From positions 1 to 55,846 of the forward strand of contig UYFQ01000841.1 in the NCBI GenBank assembly GCA_900617105.1: a stretch of DNA of 55,846 nt. Reading direction: 5' to 3'. The stretch is from Hydrurus foetidus (taxonomy: Eukaryota). The notes below the pieces were generated by a model. The model searched no databases, was not told where the DNA came from, and worked only from the letters and a program-made list of their open reading frames with translations. The position numbers were made by a program, and so were the translations under genes. Shown one piece after another: positions 4,021 to 34,178 of this stretch. Numbering within the stretch: position 1 is the stretch's first letter; the number at the start of each line of letters is the position of its first letter.

Positions 4021-5439
4021 ATGGCTAACCGGTGTTGTGTGCAAGCAAAAGGTTGATTTCATTTACGATCACTTTTTCAATCAATGCGTAATATTGCATT
4101 GCAATATTTTTACTTAGCATAGAGCTGTGTAAGAAACGTGAAAGCGTGAAATGTTTTTTTTTTTTTTTTTTTGAAATGTTTACAGTCTCAAAATCTTGTA
4201 AAGACTTGAAATCTGTTGTTAAATTGTTACAAAATGTGTACCCACATATTGAAAACTAAAAAAAAAATACGACATTTTCAAATGTACGAAAAGGTGACCC
4301 ACCCCTACTGGGGCTCGAACCCCGAACTCAGGATGGTCAGTAATCCTTGGAGGATATTTTCTTTAATCGTCGATATCTCTCTACTGAGAGCGATTCGAGA
4401 GATTAGAAGCTTCAGATCATGTTTATATGACTGTTAGGCATCTTTCTAGAGGTTCTGACCTTTTCTAGGTCAAAACCTGATAAAAATTAGTCGAGAACGA
4501 CGATGTCGCGCTAAGTCTATAACTCAGCAGGATGATCTCGAATTCAACCAGAACTCGGTGTAAACGATTCTATAGGATACTAGAGATCATTATCCGAAGG
4601 GACAATGATGTCCGCATGCGAATTCTCTATGTATCTCTTGTCAAAAGATGAGCAGAAATCGTTTATTCGCTCGAGATATTTCTCCGAAGAAAAATGGCTG
4701 TATCTCTGTGAAGAGGTTAGCCCTGCTCAGGAAAATTTTTCCAGAGCTTCGCCTCGTTCACGAACGGGTACTGTAACGTCAGTAACAACGAATAAAGCAA
4801 TTCTAACCAACTCTTGAACTGAAAAGTTCTATGGCGTGAAAGCCAAATTTAGAGTGGTAGAAAATCTGAGTGACCGTTAAGGTCGAAGACGTTGCTCAAC
4901 GTCGACGAAAAGAAGTCTATAGACTAACTTTGTGTCTCTGGTGATGAATCTGTGATTCGATCGACCAGCGGAGCAAGTCTAAAATGACTTTTGGGAAGGA
5001 TAAATCAACTTCGACCAAGATGTCAAGTTTGGAAGAGCCCAATGCACGGGGATTCCAAGAAAGCACTTAATCTGACTTTCTCTAACTTAGACTAGGTCTT
5101 CTGAGCCAATGGCTGCAGAAGAAAACGGCTCAAAAGTCGTTGAGCAAACGCTCAGAAGTCTTATCTACAGGTTGGGACGAGTAGACGGAATGAGAAGTAG
5201 AAGAAGAAAGAGTGGACGAATAGCGCTATTGTAGTCCGGATAGGAAGTAGGTCGATAGAAAAGAGGTGTTACTTAGTTACGAGGCTAAGCTAGAAGCTAG
5301 GATAACTTCTACGAGTAGGCTAGAGCTAGCTAGCAGCTGCGCTAGAGATGTATGTGTACAGTAGGCGGTAGGATCGGATGGATCGGGACTAGGTCCGGTA
5401 CGGCCCGTAGGCCCGGTATAGCTGGTCCGACCACACAAG

Positions 5440-7913
5440 ATAGAGGAGTCGTGGAAGGTCGAAGACAGTCCTGAAGACTAATTCGATGCCTCTGGACACG
5501 ATTTTTGAGCTTTAAAATAGCTAGAACTCCTTCAAAATTGTACAGTAATAAAATTTCCAGTAAAAACGCTAAAAATCCTTATTTTGTCCGAGTTACAGAC
5601 TCCGAAAACAGCAATCGCTGGACAGTGCAACTCTAATCACCAAGGGATCAGAGAGACTGAGCAGAGAATCAACTTTCTCGACAAAATATATTTTTCTCAG
5701 CATTTTATCCTTTTTCGAGAAGGAAAAAGTGCTGAGTGGGTTGTATTTGCCCCCTCAGGGATTCTTTCCCTAATAACCTCTACCACCACCTTGGTTACCC
5801 ACGGGATTTCGTTGGTTTCGGTTTTGGTTGTTTTGGTTACCAAAACTTCGGTTTTGATTACCTTGGTTTTGGTTTCCTCGGTTTCCATTGCCTTAGTTTC
5901 TATTACCTTGGTTTTGGTTGCCACCTTCCTCCTACCATGGTTGCTCTTTACCTTCTTGCTGTTGCGCATCAAGAAGGGTGGAGAACCAGCAGGGTGGTAA
6001 CTTTCGCGGTTTTCGAAACCAGGTAGGATGAGTCTCTCCTGCTCACCATTTGCCAACCATGCGTCACCCACAATTGAACCAGACCAATTACAGTAATGAT
6101 TGTTGTTATTGTCGGTATAGTACAGGACTGGACAATCGTTCAGCATATGCGCAGGGTTTCCGCATGAGCGACAAACACGAGTAGCAGCCACCAACGGTAC
6201 GTCAAGAGAGGAACGAACCGCCAGGGTGCTCTTCTCGATGGAAGTATCAGCGTCGCGTATAGCAAATGTACTCCTGTAGTCGGGTAGAACGACCGGCCAC
6301 CCCCAAAGTACAACGCTACACTCCCCCGTTTCTTCGTCGATCGGGGAGGAGGTACTGCTGTACTCGAGAACGGGTAGACGATATCAGGCTTGCCATAACT
6401 CCTGCTCATCCGAATCGTCTCTCGTGCCGTAGTGATGACGGCAATAACGCGCACCCAAGTCTTGGGTGACAAGGTGTCTCTCTCGGATGATATGTTGTGT
6501 CTTTATGTTCGAGATAGTCGGCTCGGATACGACTCCCTCGAGGAAGTCGTTTCTCAAGAATTGTGATCAGCTCTGCATGTTGAGAAGCATTGATACGACA
6601 AGTACGCTCGTAATCTGTGATGAGGTCTTTGTACACCATGTACGTAGCAAGTTCCTCCTCATCAGATGCGAGAGAGTAATGAAACGGGACCTTTGCGAAA
6701 AGCTCCGCTAGGGTATGATCCCCTTGTTTATTTGTGTTAAATTATTGCATGATCAATAATGCAACGGATTTGATGTTCAGCAAGTTCTGCCAATCATATC
6801 GTTCCTGAGGAGTAATCATCGTTGAATGTGACTGATCAGTCATGATTTTCACAGGAAGCAAATCGACTGCTTGACGTTGCATGCATTCTTTGATGCGTAG
6901 ACGTGGCAAGCGTTGAGCTTGCTTATAGAAATCCCCAGCATCCTGCGGAGTAATGAAATCTTCTCTCAGGATGAATACTTCTCGCTGGATCTGCATCGTC
7001 TGTGGGAATACTACAGTATTAGAAAATTGTGAGGTTTGCGAGGTGTTTAGAATACCCACATCCTCCTCTTGTATCTCCACCTCTTCAATCTCGTCATCCT
7101 TAGGATCAGCTACGAGTTTCTCTTTCTCTTCCTCTTCGTCATTAGGGCTGTCTCCTCGTTCAGACGCATCTCTATCGAAAGATGATGAGCTGATATTAAT
7201 CGACTTATATCGAAGCAAAGAATACAGCATCTGGTCAAAAAAATGCGGGAGCTTCGCCTGGTTAGCCTATTGAGCGCTTGACGCACGTAACAGCGAATAA
7301 TGAAGTGTCAACCAACTCTTATCGAAAAAAATTTTATGGTGTGAAAGCCGAATTTTGAGTGGTGAATATTTTCGAGTTCTGTTAAGGATGAAGGAAAACT
7401 TTCCTGACGACCAAAAGATGTTCGTAAGCTAATCTGATGTCCGGTGTTCAATTTGCTAGCGGAAGACTCCCTGATTACGAGTTTGGAAGGCTCTCGCGAC
7501 TTCGGCCAAACACAAACTTTTGGAGACACCTTTCGTAGGGTCCCAAAAGGAAAGAGGCTAAGCCCAACTTTCTTTAACTTAAACTACGTTCTCGGAGCGT
7601 CGGGCTCAGCGAGAATCACGACTCCGTGGAAGTCGATGAGTACATCGTACTCGTTTGGGAAATCTTAGCTGAGAGTTCGGAAAAGTAGAGATTGGAAAGG
7701 TTAGTAGCAATAGATTGGAGGTTAATAGCGCCATTGTGATCCGGGAAGAAGAAGAAGGGTGTCGAGTGGTAGAGCTTAGGTTGCATTGTATGATAGAAGC
7801 TACGGTAGTTAACATCTACGTGGATGCTGCAAATGGCTACGACGATACAACAGACTGTAGTGTACAATAGTATTATCTGGTAGGATCAGGACCTTGGACC
7901 CGCAACTACCACA
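5440..7913 (-). mobile_element. Ty3/gypsy retrotransposon copy 2: 5' leader plus fragmented gag
   Basis: Starts TGTGGTAG on the minus strand at 7913. Leader is homologous to 4700-5437. Gag pieces at 7230-6742, 6639-6406 and 6194-5697. Confidence 0.7.
5697..7230 (-). pseudogene. gag: Gag, frameshifted, with CCHC zinc knuckle
   Basis: CRSCGNPAHMLNDC knuckle followed by NNNHYCNWSGS, parallel to CHTCGRAGHNRYDC...NNTCCTWSQS in the 51109 Gag. Acidic N-terminal tract. Confidence 0.7.
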
Positions 7914-8810
7914 AGAGTTAAAAAGGAGGTTAATCGCCATTTACGCGCCTTTGCTTTTGATTCAACGAATCTGAATGCATGCAAGCTTTGCCTGCCCTTC
8001 AATCCGTACATTCACAAAAAAATCAATAATAAAGAATAAGAATAATAAACAGTACGGAAGCTTCACCAGCAAGTCTGCTGTTTGGAGTTCAATTGAGCTT
8101 TGGCAGAGGTATCTTGGTTAAAATTTCCTGATGCAAATCAATTGCCGACCAGAGCGTCGAAAGTTGTAGCAAATATGTTGCTTATACAACTACAGCTCAA
8201 CGATGTCGCTATCGCCCAGTTGAAATCAACAGACGCTAAACGAGTTTCAGTGAACAATGTACCAAGAACAGTCTTTGAAATTGATTCTTATGTGTTAGCT
8301 CCTAACCCTATAGGGCCAGAGACTAGATTACACTGTAAGTGGCAACGCTCATTTAAAGTTGTAAGCTATGATCAAAGTGAATACACTTTACTAAATCTTA
8401 TCACGAAGAAAACACGTGAGGTTCATGCAAGTAAATTAAAATCTTTTAGGTTTCATCCGACTCAAAGAGCACCGACTGACACAGCTCGTTGTGATTGCAT
8501 GGAGTTTTTCATGGAGGAAGTCATTTTACATGTTGAAATTAAAAAATCTCCTTCTTGAATGAAATTCTATATTAAATGGTTGAACTACGATTCAAGCCAT
8601 AATTCATGGGAACCTTGGAAGTCCATGCGCGCTACAGATCAACTTTATAAGTATCTGCGCGAAAACGACTTACAGTATGTTCTTCCAAGATAATTTCGTA
8701 TTGTACCTCCCCCTGTGATAAAGAATCTGTGAATGTTGTCTATGAAGATTACTCCTAACGTCACTTGAGTTTTTTTACGAAAGTTTAGTCAGTAAAAATC
8801 TGACATAATC
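7914..8810 (+). mobile_element. Gypsy integrase C-terminus plus chromodomain relic with 3' UTR
   Basis: RVKKEVNRHLRAFAFD, RLHCKWQRSFKVV, VHASKLKSF and IKWLNYDSSHNSWEPWKS match the 3' part of pol copy 1. Contains stops and frameshifts. Shares a 26-nt 3' UTR motif with 5-30. Confidence 0.85.
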
Positions 8811-10660: not shown

Positions 10661-12499
10661 ATGTTTGCCATCAAATTATTTTTCAAGGATGAGACACGAC
10701 GCGCACAGATTTATTCTGAAGAGAATAAGATCTCATTCGCGATGCTTGTCAGTACTGCCCAAAGTCTCTTCCCAGCTCTTCGCGGAAAATCTAACCTAGA
10801 GTTTTACTGGAAGGACGAAGAAGATGACACTATTATCGTGTCCAGTGATGACGAACTTTCAGAGGCCACAAGAGTCATGACGCACTGGAAACGTAATGTC
10901 ATGCGCTTTGAGATACGTGAAAACCAGGATGGCGAACTTCTGACATCCTACCCAGTTCCAGAGGCCACCATCGCGAGTGAGATAAATTTGGCTATCCACA
11001 ACCATGTCAGATGTGACGGCTGTGATGTGTGTCCAATCGTTGGAGTTCGTTACAAGTGTGCTGTCCGCGAAGATTATGACCTGTGCGAACTCTGTGAAAG
11101 TAAAGAACTTCAGCCGCACCCAATGATCAAGATTAACAATCCAGACCAAGCACCTGCTGCAATCGTAATTGCAGTCAAGGAAGACTCCTCCAATCGCGGA
11201 AACTGGAAAGGATCCCATCACAGAACGCACGGTCCTCATGGTCCGCATCACAACCATCACGGACATCACGACCGGCTTCACCCCAATGGCCCCTTTCAGA
11301 ACGGCCAACAAAATTGCCGAAATCCCTCGGTGCATCCTGACGGATCTTGGGGAGAAGGAAATCTTGGTGGCCCCGGTCCTTGGCGACGCATGATGCGACA
11401 AGAAAGACGGAGCGCTGAAAACTGTGGACAGGGCCGCAACAACTGGATAGCAGCTGCTACAGAGGCCCTCGCCAATTCGCTTTCAGCCGATGGAATGACA
11501 GCCTTCAAGCATCAATCCGCCGAGATCGACCGAGCGGACGATGCGACGAAAACTGACCAGGTATGGCTTGAAGAGGCTCTTCGCCAATCTCTCGAGGGTA
11601 GTGCGCTCGACGCAGCCGCCAGTGCCGGCTCTAGGCCCAATGAGGCAGCAGCACCAGTCGAGGAGAGTCTCGCTGCTGCAGGCACTCAGGCTGCGGCGGT
11701 GATTGCTGTTCCTGCGTTACCTTTGACGAAACCCATGGCGCGATTCGTGAGGGACGTAACATTCCCGGACGGCACACCTGTCCAGCCGGGATCCGTGTTC
11801 TTGAAGACATGGAGAATTCGCAATGATGGTGAACGCGCGTGGCCTGAGAATGTCGTGCTCGCCTGTGCTGGTGGAGACAGCCTATCATCCCCTGATGTCA
11901 TTTTACCTGTTGAATCGCTTCTCCCTGGCTGCGAGTCAGAGGTTACACTGCAGCTGAGCGCACCAGAACGGACTGGCAGACATGTGGCATATTTCCGCAT
12001 GCGTACTACGGAGGGAGTCAGCTTTGGGCAACGCCTGTGGGCCGACATCAGAGTGATGGAAGATGATCAGGGATGGCACCTACTCGGCGGAATGCTAGGC
12101 ACAAATGTGTCCTCACCATCGCTCAGTCGATCGGACTCTGATAACCCCGCTGTCGTGCAGGAGGTGAAGGCGGAAAGCTCTGAGCTCCCCACAACGGCAT
12201 CCTCTACTGCGGAAGAACATCTCTCGGATGACGACTCGGCCGATATTACTGGCACCAACAAAGACGATGCGGAAAACGCCACGGAAGAGATGGGTGAGTC
12301 CCACAACTCACTTGTTGCCGTTTGGACGAAGGTTTGGACACAAGAACTTAACGTTCTTGCAGAGATGGGATTCACCGATACGGAGACCAACGTGACCCTG
12401 CTGCAGAAGTACCTTGGGATCCCCTCCTCTCTGTCCAGCAACGGCCCTGTGCACACCGAGGGAATCCAGAACGTTATTAATGCACTTCTAAGTGCCTAA
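10661..12499 (+). CDS. NBR1: NBR1-like selective autophagy receptor (PB1-ZZ-FW-UBA-like), intronless, 612 aa
   Basis: PB1 (YWKDEEDDTIIVSSDDEL), ZZ finger (HNHVRCDGC..IVGVRYKCAVREDYDLCELC), FW domain (FVRDVTFPDGT..FLKTWRIRN..FGQRLWADI), C-terminal UBA-like LAEMGF. Confidence 0.9.
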   Translation: MFAIKLFFKDETRRAQIYSEENKISFAMLVSTAQSLFPALRGKSNLEFYWKDEEDDTIIVSSDDELSEATRVMTHWKRNVMRFEIRENQDGELLTSYPVPEATIASEINLAIHNHVRCDGCDVCPIVGVRYKCAVREDYDLCELCESKELQPHPMIKINNPDQAPAAIVIAVKEDSSNRGNWKGSHHRTHGPHGPHHNHHGHHDRLHPNGPFQNGQQNCRNPSVHPDGSWGEGNLGGPGPWRRMMRQERRSAENCGQGRNNWIAAATEALANSLSADGMTAFKHQSAEIDRADDATKTDQVWLEEALRQSLEGSALDAAASAGSRPNEAAAPVEESLAAAGTQAAAVIAVPALPLTKPMARFVRDVTFPDGTPVQPGSVFLKTWRIRNDGERAWPENVVLACAGGDSLSSPDVILPVESLLPGCESEVTLQLSAPERTGRHVAYFRMRTTEGVSFGQRLWADIRVMEDDQGWHLLGGMLGTNVSSPSLSRSDSDNPAVVQEVKAESSELPTTASSTAEEHLSDDDSADITGTNKDDAENATEEMGESHNSLVAVWTKVWTQELNVLAEMGFTDTETNVTLLQKYLGIPSSLSSNGPVHTEGIQNVINALLSA

Positions 12500-14581
12500 G
12501 TTAAATGATGGCGACTGGACAAATAGTTCGCCGATGGTTCTTAAGGAGGTCCTGGCCTACGTTTCTTCTTCTGTGAGCAAGAGAACGCGTCCAGAGACTC
12601 TTCCTGTCTTAGCTAGCACACTACTGTAGTTAATAGTGCCACTTGGCAACACGATCAATGACAGCCATACTTTCGCAGAAAATAAGAGTTCTAATGAGAT
12701 TCCATGGAACTTTTTTTCCATTTTATTCGATCGAACGTTTACTTAGCTGGAAAATAGTCAAGAGAACCTAATTCTGAAATGTACAGGTCAATTTGCTCTT
12801 GTCCTCGCTTCTATATGAGCCCAGGCATGACAGAAATTGTTGTGCAACGGAACACTTCGCTGATATTTTGCGGTACTTCGAGACAACTTCTTTTCGAGAG
12901 TTCCGCCATTCCTGTGGGCAAATAGTTGTGAGGAGAGGAGACTGGTCAAGAGAGCCCAAAGCAGTCAGAGAGAGGTAGGTGGAAATCAGGGCAGCATCAA
13001 ATACTAAGCGCATTATGGTGTACCTGTTGCCTTGCATGCTCCTTCCGTCCCTGTCTCAGTCCCTCTCACGGCCAGCAGCTTGGGGTGCAGGGAATGCGAG
13101 GAGAAAAGTGGAGCGAAGATGAAAAGTGAAGAAATTAATATGGAGGAAGAAGAGATTGAAGTGAGGTTAGGTGGGTAGATAGTGCAGCATTCGGTACTGC
13201 GCATCATCATGAAGAATTGATCGGGTTTCCCTTCCCGTTCATCGGTCTGTACTACCCAACTCACATCTCTTCACGTCTCATGGCACCATCTCACATCTCA
13301 TAACACTATCCCATATCACATCACGTCCCTCCTTATCGTACCATACCGCACAAAGCATCTTGCTGGTGCTAGTAATAGATGCAGAGCGTTCAGCTCTTCA
13401 TGCTCACCTGCTTTCTCTCTCCCTCTCTATATCTCTCTCCCTCCCTCTTTATCTCTCCCTCATCAGCAGCGGTACCGACTCTTCGCTCTGTTGATTTTGG
13501 CTCTGGTCCTGCCTCCGATTCTCATTCTCATTATTGCAGTTACAGTACTTCTTCTGTTCCAGTGCACACGGAATGCACCGTAGGTAGCGGTGAAGAGGAG
13601 GAAGAAGGAGATAATGATGAAGGAAGGGAAGAGGAGGGGGATTCCTGTGGGAAAGAAGAGGTAAGGAGAGGTGTGAGCACATGAAGATTGTGGAAGAGAG
13701 AATGACCACTGTATGCGAGCATGAATGGATATAAATAAATGAATAAATAGATACATGCATGACCGAAGGAGGGCGAGAAAGAGAGATGAGAGATGAAATA
13801 ACATCTCGTCAGTGCCGAAAAAATCTACGTGTCAACCTATCAATGAATGCATCAATCTTTCTATCTTTGTGACTGTCAATAAATATGAGCTACCTTATAT
13901 TTTCTACCTTCTGTTCAGTCACCTTCTCAGGTGCCTACTAGACTCATTGAAAAGGCGTTACGAAGAGAAAGAGAGAGCCATGTATCAGGGTGCACGACCA
14001 AGTCTGCTCTGCTCTCGTCTGATCAGATCTGATCTATGAGAGCAGGAAACTCATAGCGGCATACGGGTCCGCATTGGTGATATCGAGATGAGGAAAGCAG
14101 AGTTGAGCTGAGTTGAGTCGAGTTGAGCAGTGATATCAATTCAGATCAACGCATTTCAGTCGAGATTATTCAATTTAATTTGAGTTGACTTCACTTGAGT
14201 AGTGTTAAAGTATGGATTGTCCGATTAAATTGCGTGATTTGGATAAGAGGGGGAGGGGAGAGTAGGGCGAGGGTGAGGGTGAGAGTTAGGTCCTAGCAGC
14301 TTCGCTTCCTCCTGATATGCGCTTATATTATTGTGGGAGGGTGTTGGAGTATCCGGAGAAAAGACACTGCTGTAGTTGTACAGGCTGGTGACGCCTATTG
14401 TTGGAGTTTCATTAGAGTGTTTGCGCAAACGGAAATATCCGGCTGGAACCCCAGGGTTCGGAGATTTACCCCCCTCTTCCGTCAAATCTCCGACAATTTT
14501 CTCCGAGATTTGACGAGTCTCGGAGATTTGATCTCGGATATATCCGAGATATTTTCGAGATCTCAAGAGTCAGAAATTGCG

Positions 14582-15367
14582 ATGGTAAATACAGTTTGGA
14601 CCAAGGAGGCCAATGAGTTCTTAATAAGTGAGGTCGCTATCGGCCATCCAGTGCGAATTTGCAACTATGCAAAGATCGGCCACGGCCAGAAGAATACCTT
14701 CTGGAATGGAGTCGCTGCAGCCCTGAAAGAGAGGACGGAAACTTTCCTTGGTAATTCATTTCCAAGTGGCAAGACATGCAACATTCAATTCGACAAACTG
14801 CTCACAATTCAGAAAGGCAACAAGAAGAACCACAAGTGGAAATCTGGAGGCACTGAAGACGTCGGTGAGATTGCATCGGGCTTGGAAGAGATATTAGCCG
14901 AAATGGAGGAGGAAGCTGATCATGCCGATCTGGATCGTGAAGCGAAGGAAGGAGTGGTAGCCCTATCCGCCGCACAAGATTTGGAATTGTCGAAGGGAAG
15001 AGTCACCCCCAAGGCTAACAAGAAGCTGGTCATCCGCGCCACTCCTGATGGAGAACCAGTCAAGCAGAAAGACACGCTGGACTCCATGCTGATCAAGGTC
15101 CTCGCAAAGAAAGCTGACGAAGACAATTCCGTCGATAGGGACAGAAAGCATAGCCTAGAGGATCGGAGGATGCTGCTCCAAGAGGAGGAATTCCAGGAGT
15201 CCAAGAGAGTCCGCACTGAAGCTGCTGAAGAGGCCCGTGAAATTCGTCGCGAAGCAGCTGAAGAGGCCCGTCTGATTCGCCAAGAAGCTCGAGACGATGC
15301 CCTCAGAAGAGACGAAATGTCGAACGCTATTCTGAAAATTGCCATGGAGTCTATTGCAAAGAAGTAA
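14582..15367 (+). CDS. Myb/SANT-like DNA-binding protein of Harbinger element 1
   Basis: WTKEANEFLI...FWNGVAAALK...GKTCNIQFDKLL trihelix pattern, then acidic and coiled-coil tail. Start placed at the first in-frame ATG inside the element (MVNTVW). Confidence 0.75.
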   Translation: MVNTVWTKEANEFLISEVAIGHPVRICNYAKIGHGQKNTFWNGVAAALKERTETFLGNSFPSGKTCNIQFDKLLTIQKGNKKNHKWKSGGTEDVGEIASGLEEILAEMEEEADHADLDREAKEGVVALSAAQDLELSKGRVTPKANKKLVIRATPDGEPVKQKDTLDSMLIKVLAKKADEDNSVDRDRKHSLEDRRMLLQEEEFQESKRVRTEAAEEAREIRREAAEEARLIRQEARDDALRRDEMSNAILKIAMESIAKK

Positions 15368-15428
15368 GCTTATCTTATGTTGATAAATTGATCTCTCTTA
15401 ATTAAATCAAAGAGTTTCAAAAATTTAT

Positions 15429-16256
15429 TCAATTTACTAAAGCAATGTCATCAGTAACTGGAAATAAATTCGATGATGCTGAAATGAACAGCCTCGAGTT
15501 CTCCTCTGTGTATCCGTCGCCAGCATGAGGCATATCACCTCTAAAGAATATCATAGAATGTAGAGGAATGCTTACTGTCTTGGAACCTCTGCCAACAAGC
15601 AGCGTCGTGTCTTCTTCTAAGCTAATCAGGGCAGAGTAATGAAAAGCAGACAGCGATTCAATCGGTGTTGCCTTGTCTGGCACATAGTCTGTGTGAGAGT
15701 CCTGTGCTTTGTCGCCAGCTTTGGAGTTCAGGAGTTTTACAGTAATGTTGCTACATCCGCTAAATACAAATCTGATGGCCTCCAAGACATCAGATAAATG
15801 TACAGAGGGATCCTCAAGAGCATGCATTGTTCGTAGGAATGGAGGAGTCCTGTTGGAGAAGTTGATTGGCTCAGCTATACCAGTCAACTTAAAGTCCTCA
15901 GGCTTCAAGGTACTCGCAACTGCATTAGCCACTATAACATATTGTCTGCTATCCTTCATTCTGTTCAGAACAGTCGCCATTCTTTTGACGTTCTCGTTCT
16001 CGATGGCCTCTATGGCATCTTGTCTCCCTCCTCGGGATTTTTGCTGCCGCTTGTTCGCTTCAAGAGTCTCCCTGGCTCTTGCTGTGAGTGCATCTCTCTT
16101 AGAGCTGGACTCAACCTTCCTCTTCAACTTTTTTCTTGACTTTCTCGCAGCTTGATTAAGATGTTTCTTGCATTTTGAAGTAACTCTACCACCATCTGGT
16201 CCGCAGCATTCCGTCAGACAAACTATGTTACCGAATTTGTAATTACAGATGGTCAT
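15429..16256 (-). CDS. 2-oxoglutarate/Fe(II)-dependent dioxygenase-like protein (transposon cargo), 275 aa
   Basis: HxD (QDSHTDY), distal His (FRGDMPHAGDGY) and Arg (NSRLF) in a beta-strand-rich domain. N-terminal Cys/His cluster followed by a basic helix. Intact ATG-to-stop ORF. Confidence 0.8.
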   Translation of the reverse strand: MTICNYKFGNIVCLTECCGPDGGRVTSKCKKHLNQAARKSRKKLKRKVESSSKRDALTARARETLEANKRQQKSRGGRQDAIEAIENENVKRMATVLNRMKDSRQYVIVANAVASTLKPEDFKLTGIAEPINFSNRTPPFLRTMHALEDPSVHLSDVLEAIRFVFSGCSNITVKLLNSKAGDKAQDSHTDYVPDKATPIESLSAFHYSALISLEEDTTLLVGRGSKTVSIPLHSMIFFRGDMPHAGDGYTEENSRLFISASSNLFPVTDDIALVN

Positions 16257-16564
16257 GCTGATTTGATTTAATTGTGATTAGTCCATGTAACAGCTTAAAT
16301 AAAATGGTAAATTTAACGTAACCGTTTTTCAAAAATTGGTGTCTGTCACAGCAGTTTTTGACGTCGATTCTACAAAAATGGACACCGAAAACAAAGATTT
16401 AAACTCTGTGCTTTTGCAAATGTTCCTAAAGTTTGCGGATTGAAATGGCCCAATTTCAAAATTTTAAATTTTTGATAATTTATAATACGAAATTTTCTTT
16501 TTCAATTATTTGGGGTACATTTACACGAAGAAGAAAAAATGAAAATCACAAAATTGAATTAAAT

Positions 16565-17962
16565 TTAAACAACTGGAGATAAATATTCTTCTAGCGTTGG
16601 TGGAGCGCACTCAAAAAATTGTGACGTTTGCCCGCCATACAAACAAGTGTGACAATTAGTGAGGAACGCCATAACAGTATAATACGAAGCAATTGGCGAA
16701 GAGAACATTTGAAGGTTTTTTGAGAAGTCTAAAAATGCCCAAAGATTCACAATTTTACCGAATCCCCACTCAACGCATTCTCTAACTTTTGACATTCTTC
16801 TACTATTTTCTAATGCGACTAAATTTAAGGGATTCGGTACTTTCGCTCTCTTCGCACCTCTTGTGATAAAACGGAGTTTGGGGTAAGCTGAATCACCATA
16901 GCACAAATAATCCACTGGAAAATCAGAAAGCAAAGCAGTCAATCTATCATGTAACCCACTCTTTCTCAGTAAGTATGAGTCATGACGGCGGCAAGAGACA
17001 GGGCCATAGAGATCTCCAATCATACCTGAAAGAGAGAATTATATTTAGAACCACTTCAAATTGTTATCCATTTAAAACCATGCAAAATGGATAATCTTAC
17101 CGTTAGGATACATTAAGGATTGCATCTTAAAACCATGCTTCCTGTAGTATCCAGAATAATACGTTTTTTGAATATCTTCAACTCTTCCTGCACCATCACT
17201 GGGACGGCATATTGACTTCTGAGTACCGTCTAAGAAAGAATTTACGTTTGCAAACTCAAGAGGAACATTAGTTTTCGTTGCAACAACAGTCGCGAAAGTT
17301 TCCTGGTAGGGCATCCAGAAGCGTAAGTTGTTGTTGATGCGAAAGCCGTGATTGGCGAGCAACCAATTTACAGTCAAGCTTAAAGATCGGCTCAAAGATG
17401 TGTGCTCTTTCCCGAACTCGATCTCAAGGTCGTGAAGCCTCCCTGGATAAGCCATCCGCCTCAGCAAGAGTATGATGGAGAATTCCTTCGAATAACGATG
17501 ACGTGAGGGAGAAAATAGAAACGGCGGCATCGCAAGCTGATCAATGAGTCTAACTAAATCAGGTTTGCGAAAGCGTAGCAAGGACCAGGATTGCTCATCC
17601 GAATAAGTGGCAGCTGTAATCTCTTTTTTCACAAGCTTGGTTATTGTGATATTCATAGGTTGATCAATAGAAATGACTTTCTCCAACAGAGCATAGCTAA
17701 CTAATTCTAATGTATTATCTTTTGGATCACTCTGATTCTCGTGATCATCAATTTCCTCCTCTTTGTCACTGTCATCACTAGCAGCAGACTCATAACCATC
17801 ATCGAGTAGACCTGTCATGATCATAGCAGATACTTGCAGATACTTCTTTTGCCGCAAAGTTTCTTCAACAGAGATACCGGCAGAACGACGTTTCAGAGAC
17901 AAAGAGCCAATCGGAGCTCGATCCACTTGGACGGTCTCAAACTCGTCTTCCATAGTTTGCAT
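16565..17962 (-). CDS. Harbinger DDE transposase, 2 exons (17962-17101, 17025-16565)
   Basis: FLDGTQ, YSGYYRKHGFKMQ, YGDSAY, RECVEWGFG. GT-AG intron 17100-17026 restores PNG|MIGDLYGP. Start codon uncertain; the frame is open to 18037. Confidence 0.92.
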
Positions 17963-18576
17963 AAGTTCTGATGCATCTTGCAACGCATCTGAGCGGGAAG
18001 ACTGCTCCACTTCATAGTAGAAAATTTGAATTTTCAAAAAAAAAAGACTTCGAACTCTTCATTCCAGATATATCAAATGTCCGAAAGCGCAAGATGATTT
18101 TTCCAAATGACTGAAACGGCTTTTACCCCCAGAAATCTCGGAAAAGTCTAAAAGACAGAATTCCAAATATCCGGGATATTTCCGTTTGCGCAAACACTCT
18201 ATTGTGTGGTGAACCGTTTATTGTAGAATGTAGGACCGTTCGGTTGTCGTACGTATGTGTGTGTGTGTGTACTATACGAAGTGTTGTACGTTACAGCGCG
18301 CATGAAAACTGTTTCATGCGTGCAACACCACTAGTATAGTCATGTTCTGTTTTATTCTTCTAGAGTAGCGTTGTGAGTCGGAATGTAAACTTCGTGGCTA
18401 GGTCGAACAGGGACGACAGACACAAGTTAAATTATCAGTTGATTGAACACACTGCGGTCTTTCATTTCACGGGATTTGCTGAGTTCTCGTACCGTTCGCA
18501 CAGAACCTCGAGTGGTCCACGCGTGCTGCGAAGTACGGAAATTCGCAACATAATTTAAACATCTGGGCATTCGAGA

Positions 18577-21500
18577 ATGCCTCCAAAGAAAGCTGCTGTG
18601 GCGGCTGTGAAATCCGACTCGAGATGCATTCTCCAGTTCGGTCGAGAAAACAACGCCATTGAGTGGCGCGAGGCCATGTACAACATCGCCACAGGCCTGT
18701 ACGGCACTACGGGAATGTTCTTTCACCTCAATAGGTCTTACAAGTTCCCTCCGATCCAACAGCGGGATTACCACCCGAATTTCGTCAACCAACCCGCCAA
18801 TGCAGAAGGTGCTGCAGCAGGAGGCGACGATGACGACGATGGGAACGAAACTGACGACAGTGACGCCGAGACCATACAAGGCGAGGATGAACCCGAAGCT
18901 GAGCCCGAAGTGTTCACTGAGCAATTTATTAATAAGCTCAGAACAGGAGCATATGATCGCCGTCTGAAGGCTATGGAACAGCAGAGACTGGATGAGGGCA
19001 AAATGTGGGCCCTCATGTGGGACCTAATGTCACAAGCGTCTCAGAGCAAGGTCAGGGAAGACCCACGGTTCGAAGCTGCCAGACTGTCACTTGACAGTAT
19101 CCGGTTATGGAGAATTATCCGGAGATCTCACCTCACTCACATGTTCGGAGATCACGACAACATGACGTCTGTCAACCTACACGATCAACAGTTGCGTTAC
19201 AACGCACTCCGTCAGGGTGACCGAGAGCCCATCGCAGAATTCAAAACGAGATTTGATAATCAGCTTAAGGCAAACAGTGGAGTGGGCATGACTGACATTG
19301 GCGAGTCACTGCGTGCACTGGACTTCATCAGCAAGTTGGACACAAAAAGGTACAGTGGCATGCTTACTGTAATGCGTAACAATGCATGCCAGAACATACC
19401 AGGTGCCTATCCGGACACACTAGCGAGTGCCTTCCGCACCGCATCCACCTGGATCCGTGACGGAGCACTAGTACCCCTTGGGAGCAACCACCAACACCAC
19501 TCGGCATACCTAGCCGATGCCGTACACGTAACAAAGGCTAAGGATCCTGAAAAAGGGAAGACCCCCTCGTCAAAGAAGGACAAGGCTCCGTTGGAAAACA
19601 GAAAAAGGTCGTCACTCGAATCCATTCTCTGTTACGTCTGCGGCAAGATGGGCCACTATGCACGAGATTGCGACGAGAGGAAAGGAGATATAGCACTCTA
19701 CACTGCAACAGAAGATATCGACGTCGATGACGAAGACCACGGTGAATACGCGTTCATCACAGTGGATGAGTTGGTTCTGTTCTCGCGGTCACATGTGCTA
19801 CTTGACAATCAAGCCTCTGTGAGCATCTTCAGCAATCGGGATCTCCTTACTAACGTTAAGCGGTCGGAGAACCAAATTGTCTTGAACGGAGTGCAGTCCG
19901 ATGCTAAGGGAGTGCGAGTCAGTGAAGAAGGACATTTCAACGAGATGGGAAACGTGTACTACAGCGAGAAAGCAACTGCCAATATCCTGTCGTTCGCAGC
20001 CATGGTCGACGGGGGTGCTCAGATTCGATACAATCAACGCGAGAGTCGGTTTACCTTACAGCCCAAAGGAAGCAACATGATATACAGTTTTTGCAGACGA
20101 AGCATTCCAGGCAGTGAAGGTCGATTCTACGTATGTGACGTGAGATCTATGGTATCTAATCGTGCTACTAGTCATCCGGTGATCGAGCATGCTATGGTTC
20201 AGACCGTCTCGGACAACTTGAAGCTCTACACGAAGCGCGAAGTGGCGTCAGCGAAGAATGCTCGAGAGCTACTCGCTCGGATGGGATATCCGTCGGTGGA
20301 GGAAGCTATCGCTATGCTCAGAGATGGCAACGACTTCAATGTCACCGAGTACGACTTCCGTGTTGCTGACTCTATCTGGGGTAAAGACATTGCATCTATC
20401 AAGGGGAAAACAACGAAGCAGAAGTCACCAGCACCGAGTCTTGTCTTGACACCGTCAATCGTGCAGCAGCAGCAGATCCTCTCAATCGACATCATGTTTG
20501 TCGAACAGGTGGCGTTACTTGTTGCTGTATCTCATCCACTTGATCTCACACTTGGTGTTATAATGGAATCTGCAGATACCGGCAAACCCTCAAGAACTGC
20601 AGAGTCAGTGAAGAGGTGTCTGGATACTATACTATCAACCTTGAGGTCTCGGAACTTCATCGTGTCAGTCATCATGTCAGATGGTGAGGGAGCTGTCGGG
20701 AAATTGATTCCATACTTGGAGAAGTTTGCAATAGAAGTCAACATCAGCGGTGCTGGAGGTCATATTGCAAGAATCGAGCGGCGCATTCGAATGATCAAGG
20801 AGAGAATACGATCTCACATCTGTGGACGTTTGCCATTTGCACTCACTATCAACGGTCTGTCCATGCTTGCATTATATTGCATCTCCCGCATCAACTATCA
20901 ACACTCTGGAACTCGTCCTGGAGGGGTCACTCCAAGAGAAGCGTTCTCAGGACAGCGGGTTGCGGGGAACAGGGACTTCAGGGTGGCCTTTGGGGATTAT
21001 TGTCAATGTACAGTTGCGAATACCGACCGTTCCATGAGTCCACGTACTGACGATTGTATAGTGTACCTGCCAACGGGTAATCGCACTGGATCCGTTAAAA
21101 TGCTGTCAATTGCAACCAACAAGATCATCTTGAGAGACAACTTTAAGGTTCTGCCTATGCCAGCATCAGCGATAATGCAGCTCAACGCACTTGCAGCAAA
21201 GGACGGTCGATACCTTACTAAGATTCCGAACGTCTACAACGAGATACAGTACATGCACAGTGTGGATAAGTCGCAGATGCCGAGATTCATACCTATCCTA
21301 CCACCTAATGCAGAAGAGAGAATTCGAGCAGAGGCTCGCATAGTACCAGTCAACATGACGATGCATCAGCTGGTCCTGGCCGACACTCCACCAGTGGAGA
21401 TCGTCAACGATATCATCCCTCCGGAGATAGGGGGTGTAACAACATTAACAGAAAATATTTTGGAGCTACATCCGGAGGGATATGACCGAACAAGTCCAAC

Positions 21501-23463
21501 GGACTCACACGATGCAGAGCAAGGCATCGATCAGCATAACGCTGACACACCAATCGACATCACGTCACCCGATTTGGTCGGAGAACACTCCCCTTCCCCA
21601 TCCCTTCCTTCCCCCACTCCCACTACTGTCAACACCATTACAGAAGAGCACGTAGAGCGTAACTCACAGGAGAAAGTGATAGATTACTTCAGGACAGGAA
21701 ATGGCATACTGAAGAGACCGTCCGAGCAGGGAGCAACTTTCGTAACGTTCAACACACCGTTAGTGACTACACCGACTCAACGAGTGTCATGCACAGAGTC
21801 TATCACAGCGGTTCTTGCAAAGCGCAAGAGTGAACTACACGTAGAGCCTAGTGCCAATGTGAGTGTGAGAGAGGCGCTCAGGACTAGGGGTGACGACGCG
21901 AGGTTAGTCATCAACAAAGAGCTACAACAAATGATCAACAAGAAGGTGTGGGCGCCTGTCCTGTACAACAGACTCACAGCTGGTGAGCGTGCGGGTATCA
22001 TTCGATCGTCAATGTTCCTTAAGAGGAAGACTCATCCGGACGGGAGGTTCGACAAGTACAAAGCGAGACTGGTTGCAGGAGGCGACCAGCAGGACAAGAA
22101 TCTATACGACGACTTGTCCTCCCCAACAGTGTCGACGAGTGCAGTGTTTACAATCGCAGCGGTGTGCGCACACGAGCATAGGCATGCAGCAGTGGTTGAT
22201 ATTGGGGGTGCATTCCTGAATGCGAGCATGACTACTGGAGTGCCAGTTTACATGCGTCTTGATAAGACCATATCAGACTTCCTGATTGCACTTGATGGTG
22301 CATACAGCGGATTCACAGACGACAAAGGGAGGATTGTAGTGCTGCTCAAGAAGGCGCTGTACGGGTGCGTAGAGAGTGCTGCACTGTGGTACGGTAACCT
22401 GAGTAAGAGTATGACATCACTGGGATACAAGTGCAACGACAGTGACATATGTGTGTTCAACCGCACGGACAGTGGGGGTGTGCAGTGCACAGCAACAGTC
22501 CACGTTGATGATCTCTTCATCACGAGCAAGAGCAAAGCCATGATCTCTGAGCTCACCGAGGGTCTCAAAGCTAGGTATGGGGAAATCACTCTTGCGCACG
22601 GTCCACTAATCAATTACCTCGGCATGGCATTCGATTTCTCTCACACAGGCGAGGCGCGCGTGAGCATGTCGGGGTACATTGACGAGATGCTCGATTCGTC
22701 CGGGGTGCAGGGTATCGCGAAGACTCCTGCCACTGATGGGCTGTTCGAGACCAGACCTGATGCAGTCATGGTGACTGAGGGAGTGCGTGTGTGGTTCCAC
22801 CGAGTCACCGCGCAGCTAGTGTACCTGTCCAAGCGAGTCAAGCCCGAATGCCTGACTGCCGTTGCATACCTCGCCACCAGGGTTACTCGCTGCAGTGAAG
22901 ACGACGTTGACAAGCTGCATCGCCTCGTGAGGTACATACGCTGGTCTCGCGATACGGGACTAGTCTTCAGACCTGGGAGCAGTGGGATATCAGTGCGGCT
23001 ATTCGTGGACGCGTCGTACGGGGTGCACGCTGACGGGAAGTCCCACACTGGCAGCTGCGTCGTGATCGGGGATATTGGTGCAGTGCACTGCAGGTCCACG
23101 AAGCAGGGGATCGTGTCCAAGTCGAGTACCGAGGCGGAGCTCATCGGTCTATCGGACTCGGCCAATCAGGGGATATACACTAGGATGTTCCTTGTGAATC
23201 AGGGATACACTATGGGGCCGGTGATCGTGTACCAGGATAACATGTCCTGCATGGCTCTTATCGACCGAGGGAGGTCCGGTGCAGAGAAGACCAGGCACAT
23301 CGGGATCCGCTACTTTTGGGTGAAGGAGCGAGTGAGCACAGGGGAGGTCATACTGGTGCACAAGGGGACCAAGGAGATGTATGCGAACATCCTCACCAAG
23401 CCACTGCAAGGGGCGCAGTTCACTTACGAGAGAGAATGTCTTACGGGATGGCCCAAGGCATAA
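18577..23463 (+). CDS. Copia Gag-Pol polyprotein (Gag-PR-IN-RT-RH), 1628 aa
   Basis: CYVCGKMGHYARDC; LLDNQAS; integrase IDIMF/SDGEG/IERRIR; RT KARLVAGG, DIGGAFL, VHVDD; RNase H VDASY, SSTEAE, QDNMS. IN-before-RT order. Confidence 0.97.
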   Translation: MPPKKAAVAAVKSDSRCILQFGRENNAIEWREAMYNIATGLYGTTGMFFHLNRSYKFPPIQQRDYHPNFVNQPANAEGAAAGGDDDDDGNETDDSDAETIQGEDEPEAEPEVFTEQFINKLRTGAYDRRLKAMEQQRLDEGKMWALMWDLMSQASQSKVREDPRFEAARLSLDSIRLWRIIRRSHLTHMFGDHDNMTSVNLHDQQLRYNALRQGDREPIAEFKTRFDNQLKANSGVGMTDIGESLRALDFISKLDTKRYSGMLTVMRNNACQNIPGAYPDTLASAFRTASTWIRDGALVPLGSNHQHHSAYLADAVHVTKAKDPEKGKTPSSKKDKAPLENRKRSSLESILCYVCGKMGHYARDCDERKGDIALYTATEDIDVDDEDHGEYAFITVDELVLFSRSHVLLDNQASVSIFSNRDLLTNVKRSENQIVLNGVQSDAKGVRVSEEGHFNEMGNVYYSEKATANILSFAAMVDGGAQIRYNQRESRFTLQPKGSNMIYSFCRRSIPGSEGRFYVCDVRSMVSNRATSHPVIEHAMVQTVSDNLKLYTKREVASAKNARELLARMGYPSVEEAIAMLRDGNDFNVTEYDFRVADSIWGKDIASIKGKTTKQKSPAPSLVLTPSIVQQQQILSIDIMFVEQVALLVAVSHPLDLTLGVIMESADTGKPSRTAESVKRCLDTILSTLRSRNFIVSVIMSDGEGAVGKLIPYLEKFAIEVNISGAGGHIARIERRIRMIKERIRSHICGRLPFALTINGLSMLALYCISRINYQHSGTRPGGVTPREAFSGQRVAGNRDFRVAFGDYCQCTVANTDRSMSPRTDDCIVYLPTGNRTGSVKMLSIATNKIILRDNFKVLPMPASAIMQLNALAAKDGRYLTKIPNVYNEIQYMHSVDKSQMPRFIPILPPNAEERIRAEARIVPVNMTMHQLVLADTPPVEIVNDIIPPEIGGVTTLTENILELHPEGYDRTSPTDSHDAEQGIDQHNADTPIDITSPDLVGEHSPSPSLPSPTPTTVNTITEEHVERNSQEKVIDYFRTGNGILKRPSEQGATFVTFNTPLVTTPTQRVSCTESITAVLAKRKSELHVEPSANVSVREALRTRGDDARLVINKELQQMINKKVWAPVLYNRLTAGERAGIIRSSMFLKRKTHPDGRFDKYKARLVAGGDQQDKNLYDDLSSPTVSTSAVFTIAAVCAHEHRHAAVVDIGGAFLNASMTTGVPVYMRLDKTISDFLIALDGAYSGFTDDKGRIVVLLKKALYGCVESAALWYGNLSKSMTSLGYKCNDSDICVFNRTDSGGVQCTATVHVDDLFITSKSKAMISELTEGLKARYGEITLAHGPLINYLGMAFDFSHTGEARVSMSGYIDEMLDSSGVQGIAKTPATDGLFETRPDAVMVTEGVRVWFHRVTAQLVYLSKRVKPECLTAVAYLATRVTRCSEDDVDKLHRLVRYIRWSRDTGLVFRPGSSGISVRLFVDASYGVHADGKSHTGSCVVIGDIGAVHCRSTKQGIVSKSSTEAELIGLSDSANQGIYTRMFLVNQGYTMGPVIVYQDNMSCMALIDRGRSGAEKTRHIGIRYFWVKERVSTGEVILVHKGTKEMYANILTKPLQGAQFTYERECLTGWPKA

Positions 23464-23566
23464 GAGATACTGTTATGTTTGTTTAGCTTAGTTACAATCA
23501 TGTTTTGTTTTATGTCATTCTTATACGACTATGTCATTGTTTCAACCGACCTCCATCCTAGGGGTG

Positions 23567-23928
23567 TGTTGGAGTTTCATTGTGTGGTGAACCGTTTATT
23601 GTAGAATGTAGGACCGTTCGGTTGTCGTACGTATGTGTGTGTGTGTGTACTATACGAAGTGTTGTACGTTACAGCGCGCATGAAAACTGTTTCATGCGTG
23701 CAACACCACTAGTATAGTCATGTTCTGTTTTATTCTTCTAGAGTAGCGTTGTGAGTCGGAATGTAAACTTCGTGGCTAGGTCGAACAGGGACGACAGACA
23801 CAAGTTAAATTATCAGTTGATTGAACACACTGCGGTCTTTCATTACACGGGATTTGCTGAGTTCTCGTACCGTTCGCACAGAACCTCGAGTGGTCCACGC
23901 GTGCTGCGAAGTACGGAAATTCGCAACA
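23567..23928 (+). repeat. Copia 3' LTR
   Basis: 362 bp, TGTTGG...GCAACA, preceded by a short purine tract AGGGG. Confidence 0.96.
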
Positions 23929-24251: not shown

Positions 24252-24800
24252 GTGACAAGAGGAGCTTCTCAGTCCGTAAGGATGGACCAGTCAAAGAATG
24301 TGCAGGAAAAGTTGATCGTGGCTGGCGCCAGCCATAAGATATTGAGAGATGAATTAAACGCGCACCATGTTCTTAGCTCCTGCCCTGATTTTAAGTTTGA
24401 AAGGACGGCACTTCAAAATGTTGTTGAAAAACGAGGACACATTCTGCTCCCATCAGTGGTATGCACTCCAGAGACTGCTGGAGGCGGCATTGAATACGCT
24501 TGGGGCAAGCTAAAGTTTGAGCAGAGGAGAAGGAATGACACGGCCGTGAAATTGGAGTCTGGCGCTAAATTTGCTGATCGAGTTAAAGCATTGTGTGCTG
24601 ACAAGGAGATTTTACCTTTGATTCGTGTATGGAAATTCCAGCGGCGTGCAAGAGACTATACGAGGCTCTACCTTGCTATCGGGCAGAGACAGGGGAAATC
24701 AGCTCCATCACATCTTGACATTGAAAAGATGAGGCAGAAGCAGAGAACACATCGAAATATAATGGAGGTCGACAGAGAGTTTGTCCGATCCGTCATCTAG
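24252..24800 (+). pseudogene. C-terminal fragment of a large-insert IS630/Tc1/mariner-class transposase
   Basis: DFKFERTALQ..RGHILLPSVVCTPETAGGGIEYAWGKLK is nearly identical to the C-terminus of the 37063-38676 ORF. Confidence 0.88.
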
Positions 24801-26571: not shown

Positions 26572-28454
26572 CATAAACCACCATCGAGTGTTAAAGGCGA
26601 TCACCTTCATTGCTGTAAGAATCTAGATGATTCGATGAAGAAAAAAAATGGCGCACATGCTACATTCATGAGAGGTCTGAGTGACTGTTTCTTTATGGTT
26701 TCCAAGGAAGATGTAGAGTGTGTAGAGAATACATTACGCTCGCAGGGTATGGACGAAAGCAAAATAGCTCTTCAAAAGAAGCTGTTCTGGAAAAAAAAGT
26801 TCCTAAGTCATTGTAGAAGGACAACTGGTCACGACAGAGTGTGTCAGCTATCGCGCTTCGATAAATTTATTGAAACGTTCATGTCGGTAAAAGATGCTAA
26901 AACAAAAGAGCTTTTGGTAACACCTCGTACTAAGTCGAAGATTGATTCTACCCGATTGGCGATTGCATCTGGATATTACATTGATATGTAATATCAATCC
27001 TCCTGGTATTAATATGTTCCGAGAGTTAGGACGAGATCAGCTTGGGAGAATGAAATATGCATGTTATCATGGAACCAATGCTTTGGAGGTAATATTTGAA
27101 TTTTACTTACTTTGATGTATTTTTCAAATCTAAAACATTGATCTCTTAAATAAAACAAAGGGGTATCATAGGCATAATCAACTCAATGACAGCAGGATTT
27201 CAATGGGAAAAAGCCATGTTTGTTTTCCGTGCTACATATGATTACAAAGGTAAATACGAAACTGATTGATAACATGACATGAAAAAGATAATAAATGATG
27301 AAAAAAAATATGAATGCAACAAATCATAAATGAAAATAGTAAATTTTAATATTTCAGATACAGGGGAAAGATTCGGAATTATTCCTTCCGACGAAAACAG
27401 AGATGTAAATTATGAGGAAGATTTTGATTTGATTCTATTAGGAGAAAACGGATTCACAGCAGAGATTTCTGATGATGAGGACTCGGAATCCGACATTCAG
27501 TCGTCAAAGCAGATTTTAAATGGAAAAGGCGACGCAGCATGATGGTTAGCTAGGATGGAGGGTACAAGAACGATGGCGAAAAAGATTGCTGGCGAACATG
27601 AAATAACAAAATTCTGGGAAGAATACAAGAAGTATCAGTCGATAGGTGAACATGGAATACGAGATTGGAGTTCGATAGCTACAGCTTGGAACTTGTTCGT
27701 GTGTGAGAGAGAGAAAAAGAAGGAGAATGATGTCGTAAAGTACTATCGAAAGCAAAGCCACATGCTCGAATCATTCTTTGATTCAGGTGGGAAAAGCAAT
27801 AATATAAAAGCAACATTGCAACCAAATGTAAAAAGTATAGGCAATTTGATGAGAGAACATAGGACTCCGGTTGTCGGACCCAGTACTTCTTTGGACGCAC
27901 CTGGTCCAAAGGCTACCCACGGTCCAAATTCGGACACCGTTCAAATCAACGATTTTAGTCAGATGGTACCGTTAGTTCCACTTCATATGAGCTATGCAAC
28001 CATACTCTTGAACCAAAAAAGTGGTCCCCTTGTATACCCCGGGCAGCTAGAACAGACACCTGCTAAAAATGAAAAGAAAAGGCCATTGGATCGTGCTCTT
28101 CAATTATGCATTACATGTGGTCACTTCCGTCAACACAACAGAATTCACAATGGAAAACACATCGCTAAGTGTCCTGTTCAAGAAGACGCGTATAGCACTG
28201 ATAGATCGATAAAAGGTTGGTGCTCCTGTCCAGAATGCAAGGAAGGAGCAGAAAAAGTCGGCTATTCGAAACCTGATATTATGATTAAGAATGCTAGATC
28301 ACTAAAAACTTGCAAGAAATGTGGACACTATAAAGATTACGGATACTTTTCTGACAACCACTCTAATACAGAATGTAGTGTACTTGAAGAAAATTATGCA
28401 ATGGATAAGTATAAGGGTTATTGCAAATGTGAAAAATGTATCTCAACGGCATAA
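26530..28454 (+). pseudogene. KDZ (Kyakuja-Dileera-Zisupton)-like transposase relic with two C-terminal Cys/His modules
   Basis: VKGDHLH..NGAHATFMRGLSDCFF..DAKTKELL..NPPGINMF..GRD..YACYHGTNALE|GYH (across an intron) matches my recollection of the RG(T/S)xxLExxH family. Stops at 26989 and 27540. Confidence 0.5.
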
Positions 28455-33990: not shown

Positions 33991-34178
33991 ATGCTCATCT
34001 CATATACTCCTTCTTGAATCATCATGATATCATTTGCAAAGCGCATCTCCCCCCACCATCACCGACATTTTTACTCCCGACCTGAAGATACATAATACGT
34101 AAATACCGCATGCTTAGCACACACATTGTATGTTCATGTCGCATACTGCGTCATCCATATTGTGTACATGCAACGGTA

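Follow-up and report, generated by a model that had tools for sequence, protein, structure and literature searches.

Introduction

Enzymes carried by transposons point to the marks by which hosts silence foreign DNA, and several mobile elements with such cargo have been described. In rust fungi, Kojima (2025) reported 15 TET/JBP-carrying Harbinger (PHISTA) families, which are three-gene PHIS transposons with TA target-site duplications (TSDs), one 2OG/Fe(II) dioxygenase and a proposed anti-silencing function; the structures nearest to their TET/JBP enzyme are CMD1, CcTET, NgTET and TET2 (PMC12730594). The Plavaka accessory gene PAG3 of the red alga Bostrychia belongs to a CMC-type giant transposon with mostly degenerate copies; in its product a putative 2OG oxygenase (best HHpred match 2OPW) is fused to ParB, and modification of its own element has been proposed (10.1101/2025.02.11.637652). 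HarbingerS of Phytophthora carries a SET methyltransferase as cargo (cited in PMC12730594 and PMC4482050), and HarbingerS-9_PI was placed in the Pangu clade (Han et al. 2015, PMC4482050). Helitron-like elements carry 2OG-FeII_Oxy_2, UCH, Ulp1 and DUF6570 cargo, DUF6570 and UCH being reported for HLE2 Helitrons (PMC11417382), and orchid Gypsy elements carry active AlkB (PMC9289625). TETs are carried by Chlamydomonas transposons and by an endogenous giant virus (10.64898/2026.10.09.758095), and PhyH is present in phycodnavirus pangenomes (PMC10598087). Where these sources give or assign a chemistry to such oxygenase cargo, it is that of TET/JBP or AlkB.

Among PHIS transposons, TNA and ANT TSDs separate different groups (PMC12477816). 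The Pangu (Harbinger2) group is defined by a 5'-ANT-3' TSD and terminal inverted repeats (TIRs) of 11-40 bp beginning with AG or GG; as described, its members are about 3.5 kb long and have two ORFs, a DDE transposase and a second ORF without detected motifs (PMC4482050).

Here we analyse a three-gene transposon of this kind in Hydrurus foetidus, in a window that comprises the whole stretch of DNA studied (contig UYFQ01000841.1, 55,846 nt). The first-pass annotation of this DNA had taken the pairing of a Harbinger with a dioxygenase to be undescribed. That is no longer so for TET/JBP, since the rust families are published (PMC12730594); it may hold for a non-TET, PhyH/PHD-like, zinc-finger-fused oxygenase, of which no example on a Pangu or Harbinger element was found in the literature covered. 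As far as those sources go, oxygenase cargo on a PHIS transposon is thus known, and what is new is a different and unnamed enzyme family on an intact, recently mobile element.

A Pangu-type PHIS transposon, by its termini, in a young Copia retrotransposon

The boundaries of the element and its insertion site are as follows.

14414-18200: whole transposon, 3,787 bp, delimited by TIRs and TSD
14411-14413: left target-site duplication ATT; the 3' LTR has a single ATT at the corresponding position
14414-14440, plus strand: left TIR, 27 bp, starts with AG
18174-18200, minus strand: right TIR, 27 bp
18201-18203: right target-site duplication ATT
14399-23928, plus strand: recipient Copia retrotransposon, with its 3' LTR at 23567-23928 and TSD CCTAT

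The two 27-bp TIRs match one another perfectly. The transposon sits 15 bp into the 5' LTR of the Copia element, the 3' LTR of which is a paralogous empty site; because only one ATT is found there, the duplication of ATT is proven, and both the perfect TIRs and the TSD named in the first-pass annotation are thereby confirmed. With the transposon taken out, the Copia LTRs show 1 difference in 362 columns, as had been claimed, and the Copia ORF (1628 aa, with RT and zinc knuckle by Pfam) runs without interruption. Near-identical LTRs and an intact Copia ORF show that the transposon was inserted recently, again in agreement with the earlier reading.

The transposase is of the DDE_Tnp_4 type, and both of its exons score above the Pfam cut-off. 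The duplicated ATT, confirmed by the empty site, fits the ANT rule of Pangu, and the TIR is inside the Pangu range in both length and first letters. The ATT agrees neither with the TNA-type TSD of canonical PIF/Harbinger elements nor with the TA dinucleotide of PHISTA. Judged by TSD and TIR, the element is therefore a Pangu-type PHIS and not a canonical Harbinger, and the earlier term Harbinger-class is correct in the wide sense (PHIS) only. It resembles the Pangu group in its ANT TSD, in its TIR and in having a DDE transposase beside a second ORF, and differs from Pangu as described, with two ORFs, in having three (PMC4482050). Like PHISTA it is a three-gene PHIS transposon with one 2OG/Fe(II) oxygenase, here a predicted one; unlike PHISTA it has the TSD ATT, an enzyme with no Tet_JBP match and with AsqJ and PHD enzymes as its nearest structures, and a finger at the N-terminus of that enzyme. 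The likeness to HarbingerS, as far as that element is described, lies in a position within or next to the Pangu clade (PMC4482050) and in an accessory gene for a chromatin enzyme, putative in the present case, the cargo being a SET methyltransferase there and a predicted oxygenase here. With PAG3 it shares, by description, a DNA-binding module (putative here) joined to a putative 2OG oxygenase, ParB standing in place of the C3H finger (10.1101/2025.02.11.637652).

A second Pangu-type element lies in the window at 32427-36076, with an ACT duplication and an identical TIR start. It contains an intronless DDE_Tnp_4 transposase of 440 aa (34481-35803, minus strand), a probably spliced plus-strand gene and a 53-bp triple repeat, and has no oxygenase gene; the gene is therefore optional, or dispensable, for the Pangu class. 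Inverted and direct repeats occur near it at 29442-29526, 32385-32429 and 36066-36120. The arrangement suggests that this second element may lie inside or beside another TIR element, which would hold the ORFs at 29883-30443 and 30613-31812.

Genes of the element

The transposase and the gene at the other end of the transposon were delimited as follows.

14582-15367, plus strand: ORF2, 261 aa, helical at the N-terminus (a Myb-like identity has weak support) and with a coiled coil at the C-terminus
17101-17962, minus strand: transposase exon 1, counted from the first ATG, an uncertain start, with the first D motif; DDE_Tnp_4 E 6.6e-7
17026-17100, minus strand: transposase intron, 75 bp, GT-AG, predicted from sequence
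16565-17025, minus strand: transposase exon 2, with the second D and the E motifs; DDE_Tnp_4 E 1.4e-8

Removal of the 75-bp GT-AG intron puts both DDE_Tnp_4 pieces in frame. ORF2 has 12 homologues of 47-96% identity. It is indeed present where a Myb-like gene had been annotated; its Myb identity is only weakly backed, for the Pfam scan gave no Myb match, and with a structure model of pLDDT 70 the best fold match was the Sap1 DNA-binding domain at a weak E of 0.09, with Myb domains at E 5.6 and 8.1.

Between them lies the third gene.

15429-16256, minus strand: third gene, 275 aa, comprising a zinc finger, a basic helix and a 2OG/Fe(II) oxygenase domain
16161-16247, minus strand: putative zinc finger C-x8-C-x15-C-x2-H, residues 4-32
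15450-15995, minus strand: double-stranded beta-helix (DSBH) domain, residues about 88-269, from fold searches
15695-15693, 15689-15687 and 15527-15525, minus strand: predicted Fe ligands H188, D190 and H244, invariant in 29/29 rows
15494-15492, minus strand: predicted 2OG-binding R255, invariant in the 29/29 rows that cover it

As first annotated, the ORF contains no stop and carries the HxD...H...R set in SHTD (H188, D190), PHAG (H244) and NSRL (R255). The 275-aa frame is probably complete, as its Met aligns with the starts of the more distant relatives P0004, P0005 and P0008. In the 10 codons upstream, the window copy has TAA in codon 3, a stretch that is open in its nearest relative, P0001; at position 16279, the full depth of sequencing run X1 (693/693) differs from the window copy.

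The N-terminal cysteine cluster had been written as C-x8-C-x3-CC...C-x2-H. In the alignment, C4 (20/22), C13 (20/21), C29 (23/23) and H32 (24/24) are conserved, C17 is found in 12/21 rows and C18 in 1/21. The finger itself is thus upheld in the form C-x8-C-x15-C-x2-H, and the 'CC' is peculiar to the window copy. Of 38 chosen family members, 32 show the pattern C-x5-9-C-x13-17-C-x2-H. The finger may resemble those of WRC or zf-C3HC3H; the Pfam scan matched it to neither, and, searched on its own, it matched no Pfam family. Following the finger is a Lys/Arg-rich stretch (17 K/R against 5 D/E over residues 33-80), with helices modelled at residues 30-50 and 53-83. From its pattern the finger may bind zinc, and from their composition alone finger and helix may bind DNA.

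Predicted fold and family placement

The Pfam scan of the 275-aa ORF named no family, and profile searches of PDB sequences returned chance-level matches only. A structure model was built from an 18-row alignment (mean pLDDT 81, beta-rich core). Foldseek gave PHD2 as the best match (E 2.4e-7) and, against BFVD, returned viral 2OG oxygenases. A comparison with VIA-align against 48,161 chains was headed by AsqJ (Z 14.8, rmsd 3.2, 175 aligned), followed by Trichoplax PHD (Z 14.3, rmsd 3.3, 168 aligned), PHD2 (Z 14.2, rmsd 3.0, 169 aligned) and the EF-Tu-bound Pseudomonas P4H, an EF-Tu hydroxylase (Z 14.2, rmsd 3.3, 162 aligned). These four are tied for best, and a second VIA search gave the identical order; JMJD7 (10.4), ALKBH6 (10.3) and E. 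coli AlkB (9.9) scored lower. The model thus has the DSBH that the first-pass annotation had expected, and the third gene is predicted to have a 2OG/Fe(II) oxygenase fold. In a 31-row alignment reaching down to 33% identity, H188, D190, H244 and R255 are invariant in the 29/29 rows that have the residue, and the same is true of R142, S178, Q185, S208 and R239. The H-x-D...H...R set, placed in the modelled DSBH, suggests Fe/2OG catalysis.

Kinship with TET/JBP, AlkB or JmjC, which had been put forward earlier, is not borne out: the best profile and structure matches are those to PhyH-like enzymes and to PHD prolyl hydroxylases. First, Tet_JBP (PF12851) matched 0/31 and 0/20 family members at E<=1, and no TET/JBP structure was among the best 50 rows of either VIA search, a result that by itself does not exclude TET/JBP. 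Secondly, AlkB enzymes have the C-terminal motif RxxxxxR; the R+6 position is Ser in the window protein, among about 110 cores no more than 1 has Arg there, and Pfam 2OG-FeII_Oxy_2 matched 0/31 members and 1/20 distant members, the latter at E 0.17. Thirdly, JmjC enzymes use Lys as 2OG ligand instead of the distal Arg; R255 is invariant here, and JmjC profiles gave no match in the 31 + 20 family members scanned. PhyH (PF05721) did not match the window protein or its close clade, gave weak matches in 4/20 distant members and passed its cut-off of 22 bits in two of the distant relatives (L005, 25.9; L053, 25.6). On these matches the oxygenase belongs to an unnamed PhyH/PHD-like family and is classed as PhyH-like, not as PhyH. 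With PHD/EGLN and PhyH-family enzymes (AsqJ, AndA, EasH) it shares the DSBH and the H-x-D...H...R set at Z 13-15; identity is 6-15%, Pfam matches the window protein to neither, and a substrate is not transferable from them.

Relatives in viruses and metagenomes

Word-based searches returned 17 relatives in a first round and 43 in a later one; their sources are all of the metagenome type, and none has an informative name. With E<=0.001 as the limit, an exhaustive profile search gave 1,147 representatives, of which 196 reached 1e-10 and 46 reached 1e-30; these were clustered at the 50% level, and the best 150 of the 1,147 were inspected. Among 56 proteins scanned, 4 carried an Ulp1-type Peptidase_C48 domain above the cut-off and 2 a weak PhyH match. 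The Atlas entry nearest to the domain was a 177-aa cluster, 83% viral (0.97, 183 of 256 features).

Protein-based scans of loci found a close relative in 0/46 candidate stretches of viral contigs, 0/85 metagenome contigs and 1/10 genome contigs, the last being L001; the window transposase as query found nothing in the viral contigs. A motif scan recovered 7 loci from viral contigs, 6 of them in the oxygenase family, and these members are stand-alone genes of about 200-230 aa (one of them split), two lying beside NCLDV capsid genes and one scoring above the PhyH cut-off. Of 120 loci in metagenome contigs, 99 had a family match; none of these 99 was close to the transposon clade (at most 61 bits) or had a tblastn match to the window transposases.

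Fusions were found in 2 of the 70 ORFs scanned, which came from a chosen subset of the metagenome loci. In L048 (128-2893, 922 aa) a SET domain stands immediately ahead of the oxygenase domain. In L039 (165-4964, 1,600 aa) a member of the oxygenase family is fused with a ubiquitin C-terminal hydrolase (UCH), and a DUF6570 Helitron-type gene (5247-8036) lies alongside. By the published descriptions, Helitron-like and orchid Gypsy elements likewise stably carry 2OG oxygenases and protein-editing domains, and L039 lies in such a setting; their oxygenases are AlkB-type by Pfam, and the family studied here is not.

Other arrangements were also seen. At L008 (2750-6156) a giant-virus-like oxygenase is interrupted by an insertion encoding a TnpB/Fanzor-like protein (Cas12f1-like TNB domain). 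P0093 combines a Tc1-like helix-turn-helix N-terminus with the C-terminal third of an oxygenase and is probably a nested insertion or a chimera. L001 (1-1010) carries a close-clade oxygenase at 39% GC on a contig in a bacterial MAG; no match to the transposase was found in that MAG, and the contig is probably a stray eukaryotic contaminant.

A tree was built from 69 of 114 non-redundant cores; it took in about half of the close clade and a minority of the unlabelled loci, and its P rows had been picked beforehand by score. The 17 sampled finger-bearing rows of the close group form one clade (99/95). We do not claim a giant virus as donor: the tree is unrooted and covers these cores only, and the four rows from the virus collection do not group together.

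Candidate substrates and a proposed mechanism

We favour, with a probability of about 0.42, the reading that this PhyH/PHD-like oxygenase likely works on chromatin, likely by oxidising a chromatin-bound protein, and so keeps the element expressible. The zinc finger and basic helix would hold the enzyme on chromatin, where its Fe/2OG centre would hydroxylate or demethylate a side chain of a bound protein, such as a histone or a silencing factor; this modification would ease silencing, and the element would stay expressible. Nuclear or DNA targeting is suggested because of the finger and the basic helix, and a protein substrate because of the equal-best similarity to PHD enzymes and the Ulp1, SET and UCH fusions of relatives. 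That the gene has been kept inside a compact transposon suggests that the element gains from it. The fusion partners would speak for chromatin or a protein as the target. A role in anti-silencing or self-marking, as suggested at the outset, is an inference. The transposon ORFs of the window, the oxygenase aside, have CpG observed/expected ratios of 0.79-1.12, that is, no depletion; this does not point to 5mC, though weakly, for the ORFs are young. Against the reading count the small-molecule PhyH-type enzymes AsqJ, TlxJ, EasH and AndA, which tie with PHD in Z, identities being 6-15%; the finger, which on its own matches no Pfam family; the commonest form of the family, a stand-alone gene of 200-250 aa in giant-virus-like contigs with no chromatin module; the 99 metagenome loci, in which the window transposases found no match; the second Pangu-type element, which lacks the gene; and the oxygenase ORF itself, with a low CpG observed/expected ratio of 0.57.

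The enzyme may instead oxidise a DNA or RNA base at the element (6mA, m6A, thymine, 5mC or a lineage-specific mark), in the manner of TET/JBP or AlkB cargo but as a clade outside these, which was the main idea of the first-pass annotation and which we regard as less likely, though strong by precedent. It would account for a zinc finger and a strongly basic helix placed ahead of the oxygenase domain and for the conserved basic residues R142, K174 and R239 near the core. The entry 2OPW, matched by PAG3, is presumably human PHYHD1. Precedents, as far as described, are base-oxidising cargo on fungal DNA transposons (PMC12730594), orchid Gypsy (PMC9289625) and PAG3 itself, with ParB and a PHYHD1-like oxygenase, as a proposed self-modifier (10.1101/2025.02.11.637652). 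Against base oxidation stand the want of any Tet_JBP match in the family members scanned, the near absence of the second AlkB Arg, AlkB-family structures that score about 4 Z units under PHD/PhyH, and the sites at which X1 sequences differ, which show no C>T/G>A excess (65+74, versus 75+82 for T>C/A>G).

Rather improbable, in our estimate, is a small metabolite as the substrate, or a part as O2/2OG-sensing or host-manipulating factor drawn from a giant-virus-type pool, from which the element would profit indirectly or through its host. In favour of this, small-molecule PhyH-type enzymes provide the top VIA match and about half of the 15 best, L005 and L053 exceed the PhyH cut-off, and the Atlas cluster is mostly viral; yet the transposon clade has come to carry a finger and a basic helix, other members of the family have acquired SET, Ulp1 or UCH, and a diffusible metabolite would presumably give a selfish element little copy-specific gain.

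Oxidation of a chromatin-bound protein remains our preferred reading. A broader extension of it is doubtful: giant viruses, Helitrons and Pangu transposons of microbial eukaryotes may share one unnamed oxygenase family outside TET, AlkB and JmjC, which would add or remove a chromatin mark not yet described, the Pangu finger aiming it at its own element. Were this true, the transposon would be a three-gene, 3.8-kb and still mobile anti-silencing system with new chemistry. The substrate of an unnamed family that also occurs in giant viruses could reveal a new silencing mark or chromatin reaction in microbial eukaryotes. This is directly testable, because the protein has 275 aa, is encoded by a single exon and comes from a recent element, and the Pangu element without the gene in the same window is a natural control.

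Copies of the element and retention of the gene

Host DNA was present in 20 of 23 listed public sequencing runs from 12 studies, mostly of freshwater, sediment and biofilm. Contigs of four runs (X1, X2, X4 and X7) were compared with the element region. Near-identical contigs covered ORF2 and the oxygenase gene in X1 (1,456 bp, 6 differences, depth 813) and extended over 1,722 bp with 9 differences in X2; in X4 a contig over 15905-16643 joins the oxygenase gene of this family to the transposase. A sister contig, about 84% alike, holds ORF2 and the oxygenase gene together in X1 (depth 748) and also in X2 and X7, and is in two pieces in X4. Diverged transposase contigs of X1 (827-857) match the sister set in depth; probably, then, all three genes are present in the sister family, although no single contig shows all of them. 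Depth in the flanks was 94-100 in X1; a depth ratio near 8 per contig set fits two repeated families, contig depth being no copy count. In three of the four runs, joints from about 14470 to about 18167 indicate short non-autonomous derivatives.

It had been asked at the outset whether the ORF occurs as a single decaying copy. It does not: it is found in two families about 16% apart. Compared with L001 (48% identity, 195 codons), pN was 0.32 and pS 0.81, which is saturated. In neutral-drift simulations (5,000 each, 15-18% DNA divergence) an open frame with the eight key residues survived in 0.02-0.12% of cases, and P0005 (77%), likely the product of the sister family as judged from diverged patches shared with the sister contig, has an open frame and all eight. 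Its occurrence in one repeated family and in a sister family at about 84% makes it a selected accessory gene of a repeated element and not a one-off capture. Passive capture of a host gene, carried neutrally in the window copy, might explain the stop in its upstream extension, open in the main family, and is otherwise nearly excluded by the two families, by the residues kept in P0005 against neutral expectation and by 46 clusters (50% level) at E<=1e-30. The linkage of the oxygenase gene to Pangu is shown for two close families only; among homologues of 33-55% identity, the only context seen is the 1,010-bp contig L001, which has no transposase.

Other features of the window

In addition to the transposons described above, the window contains at 27555-28454 and 37063-39899 a Cys/His-rich ORF and two transposase-like ORFs with no significant Pfam match. 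The former stretch is flanked by 24-bp inverted repeats, and 24252-24800 is a partial copy of 37063-38676, 65% identical. A host gene for an NBR1-like autophagy receptor, with PB1, ZZ and NBR1 Ig-like domains, lies at 10661-12499. Tandem gene units of about 1.15 kb each, with a signal-peptide-like start, occupy 40795-48364; the ORF at 47570-48364, which comes after the tandem array, may be Hint-domain-like by motif.
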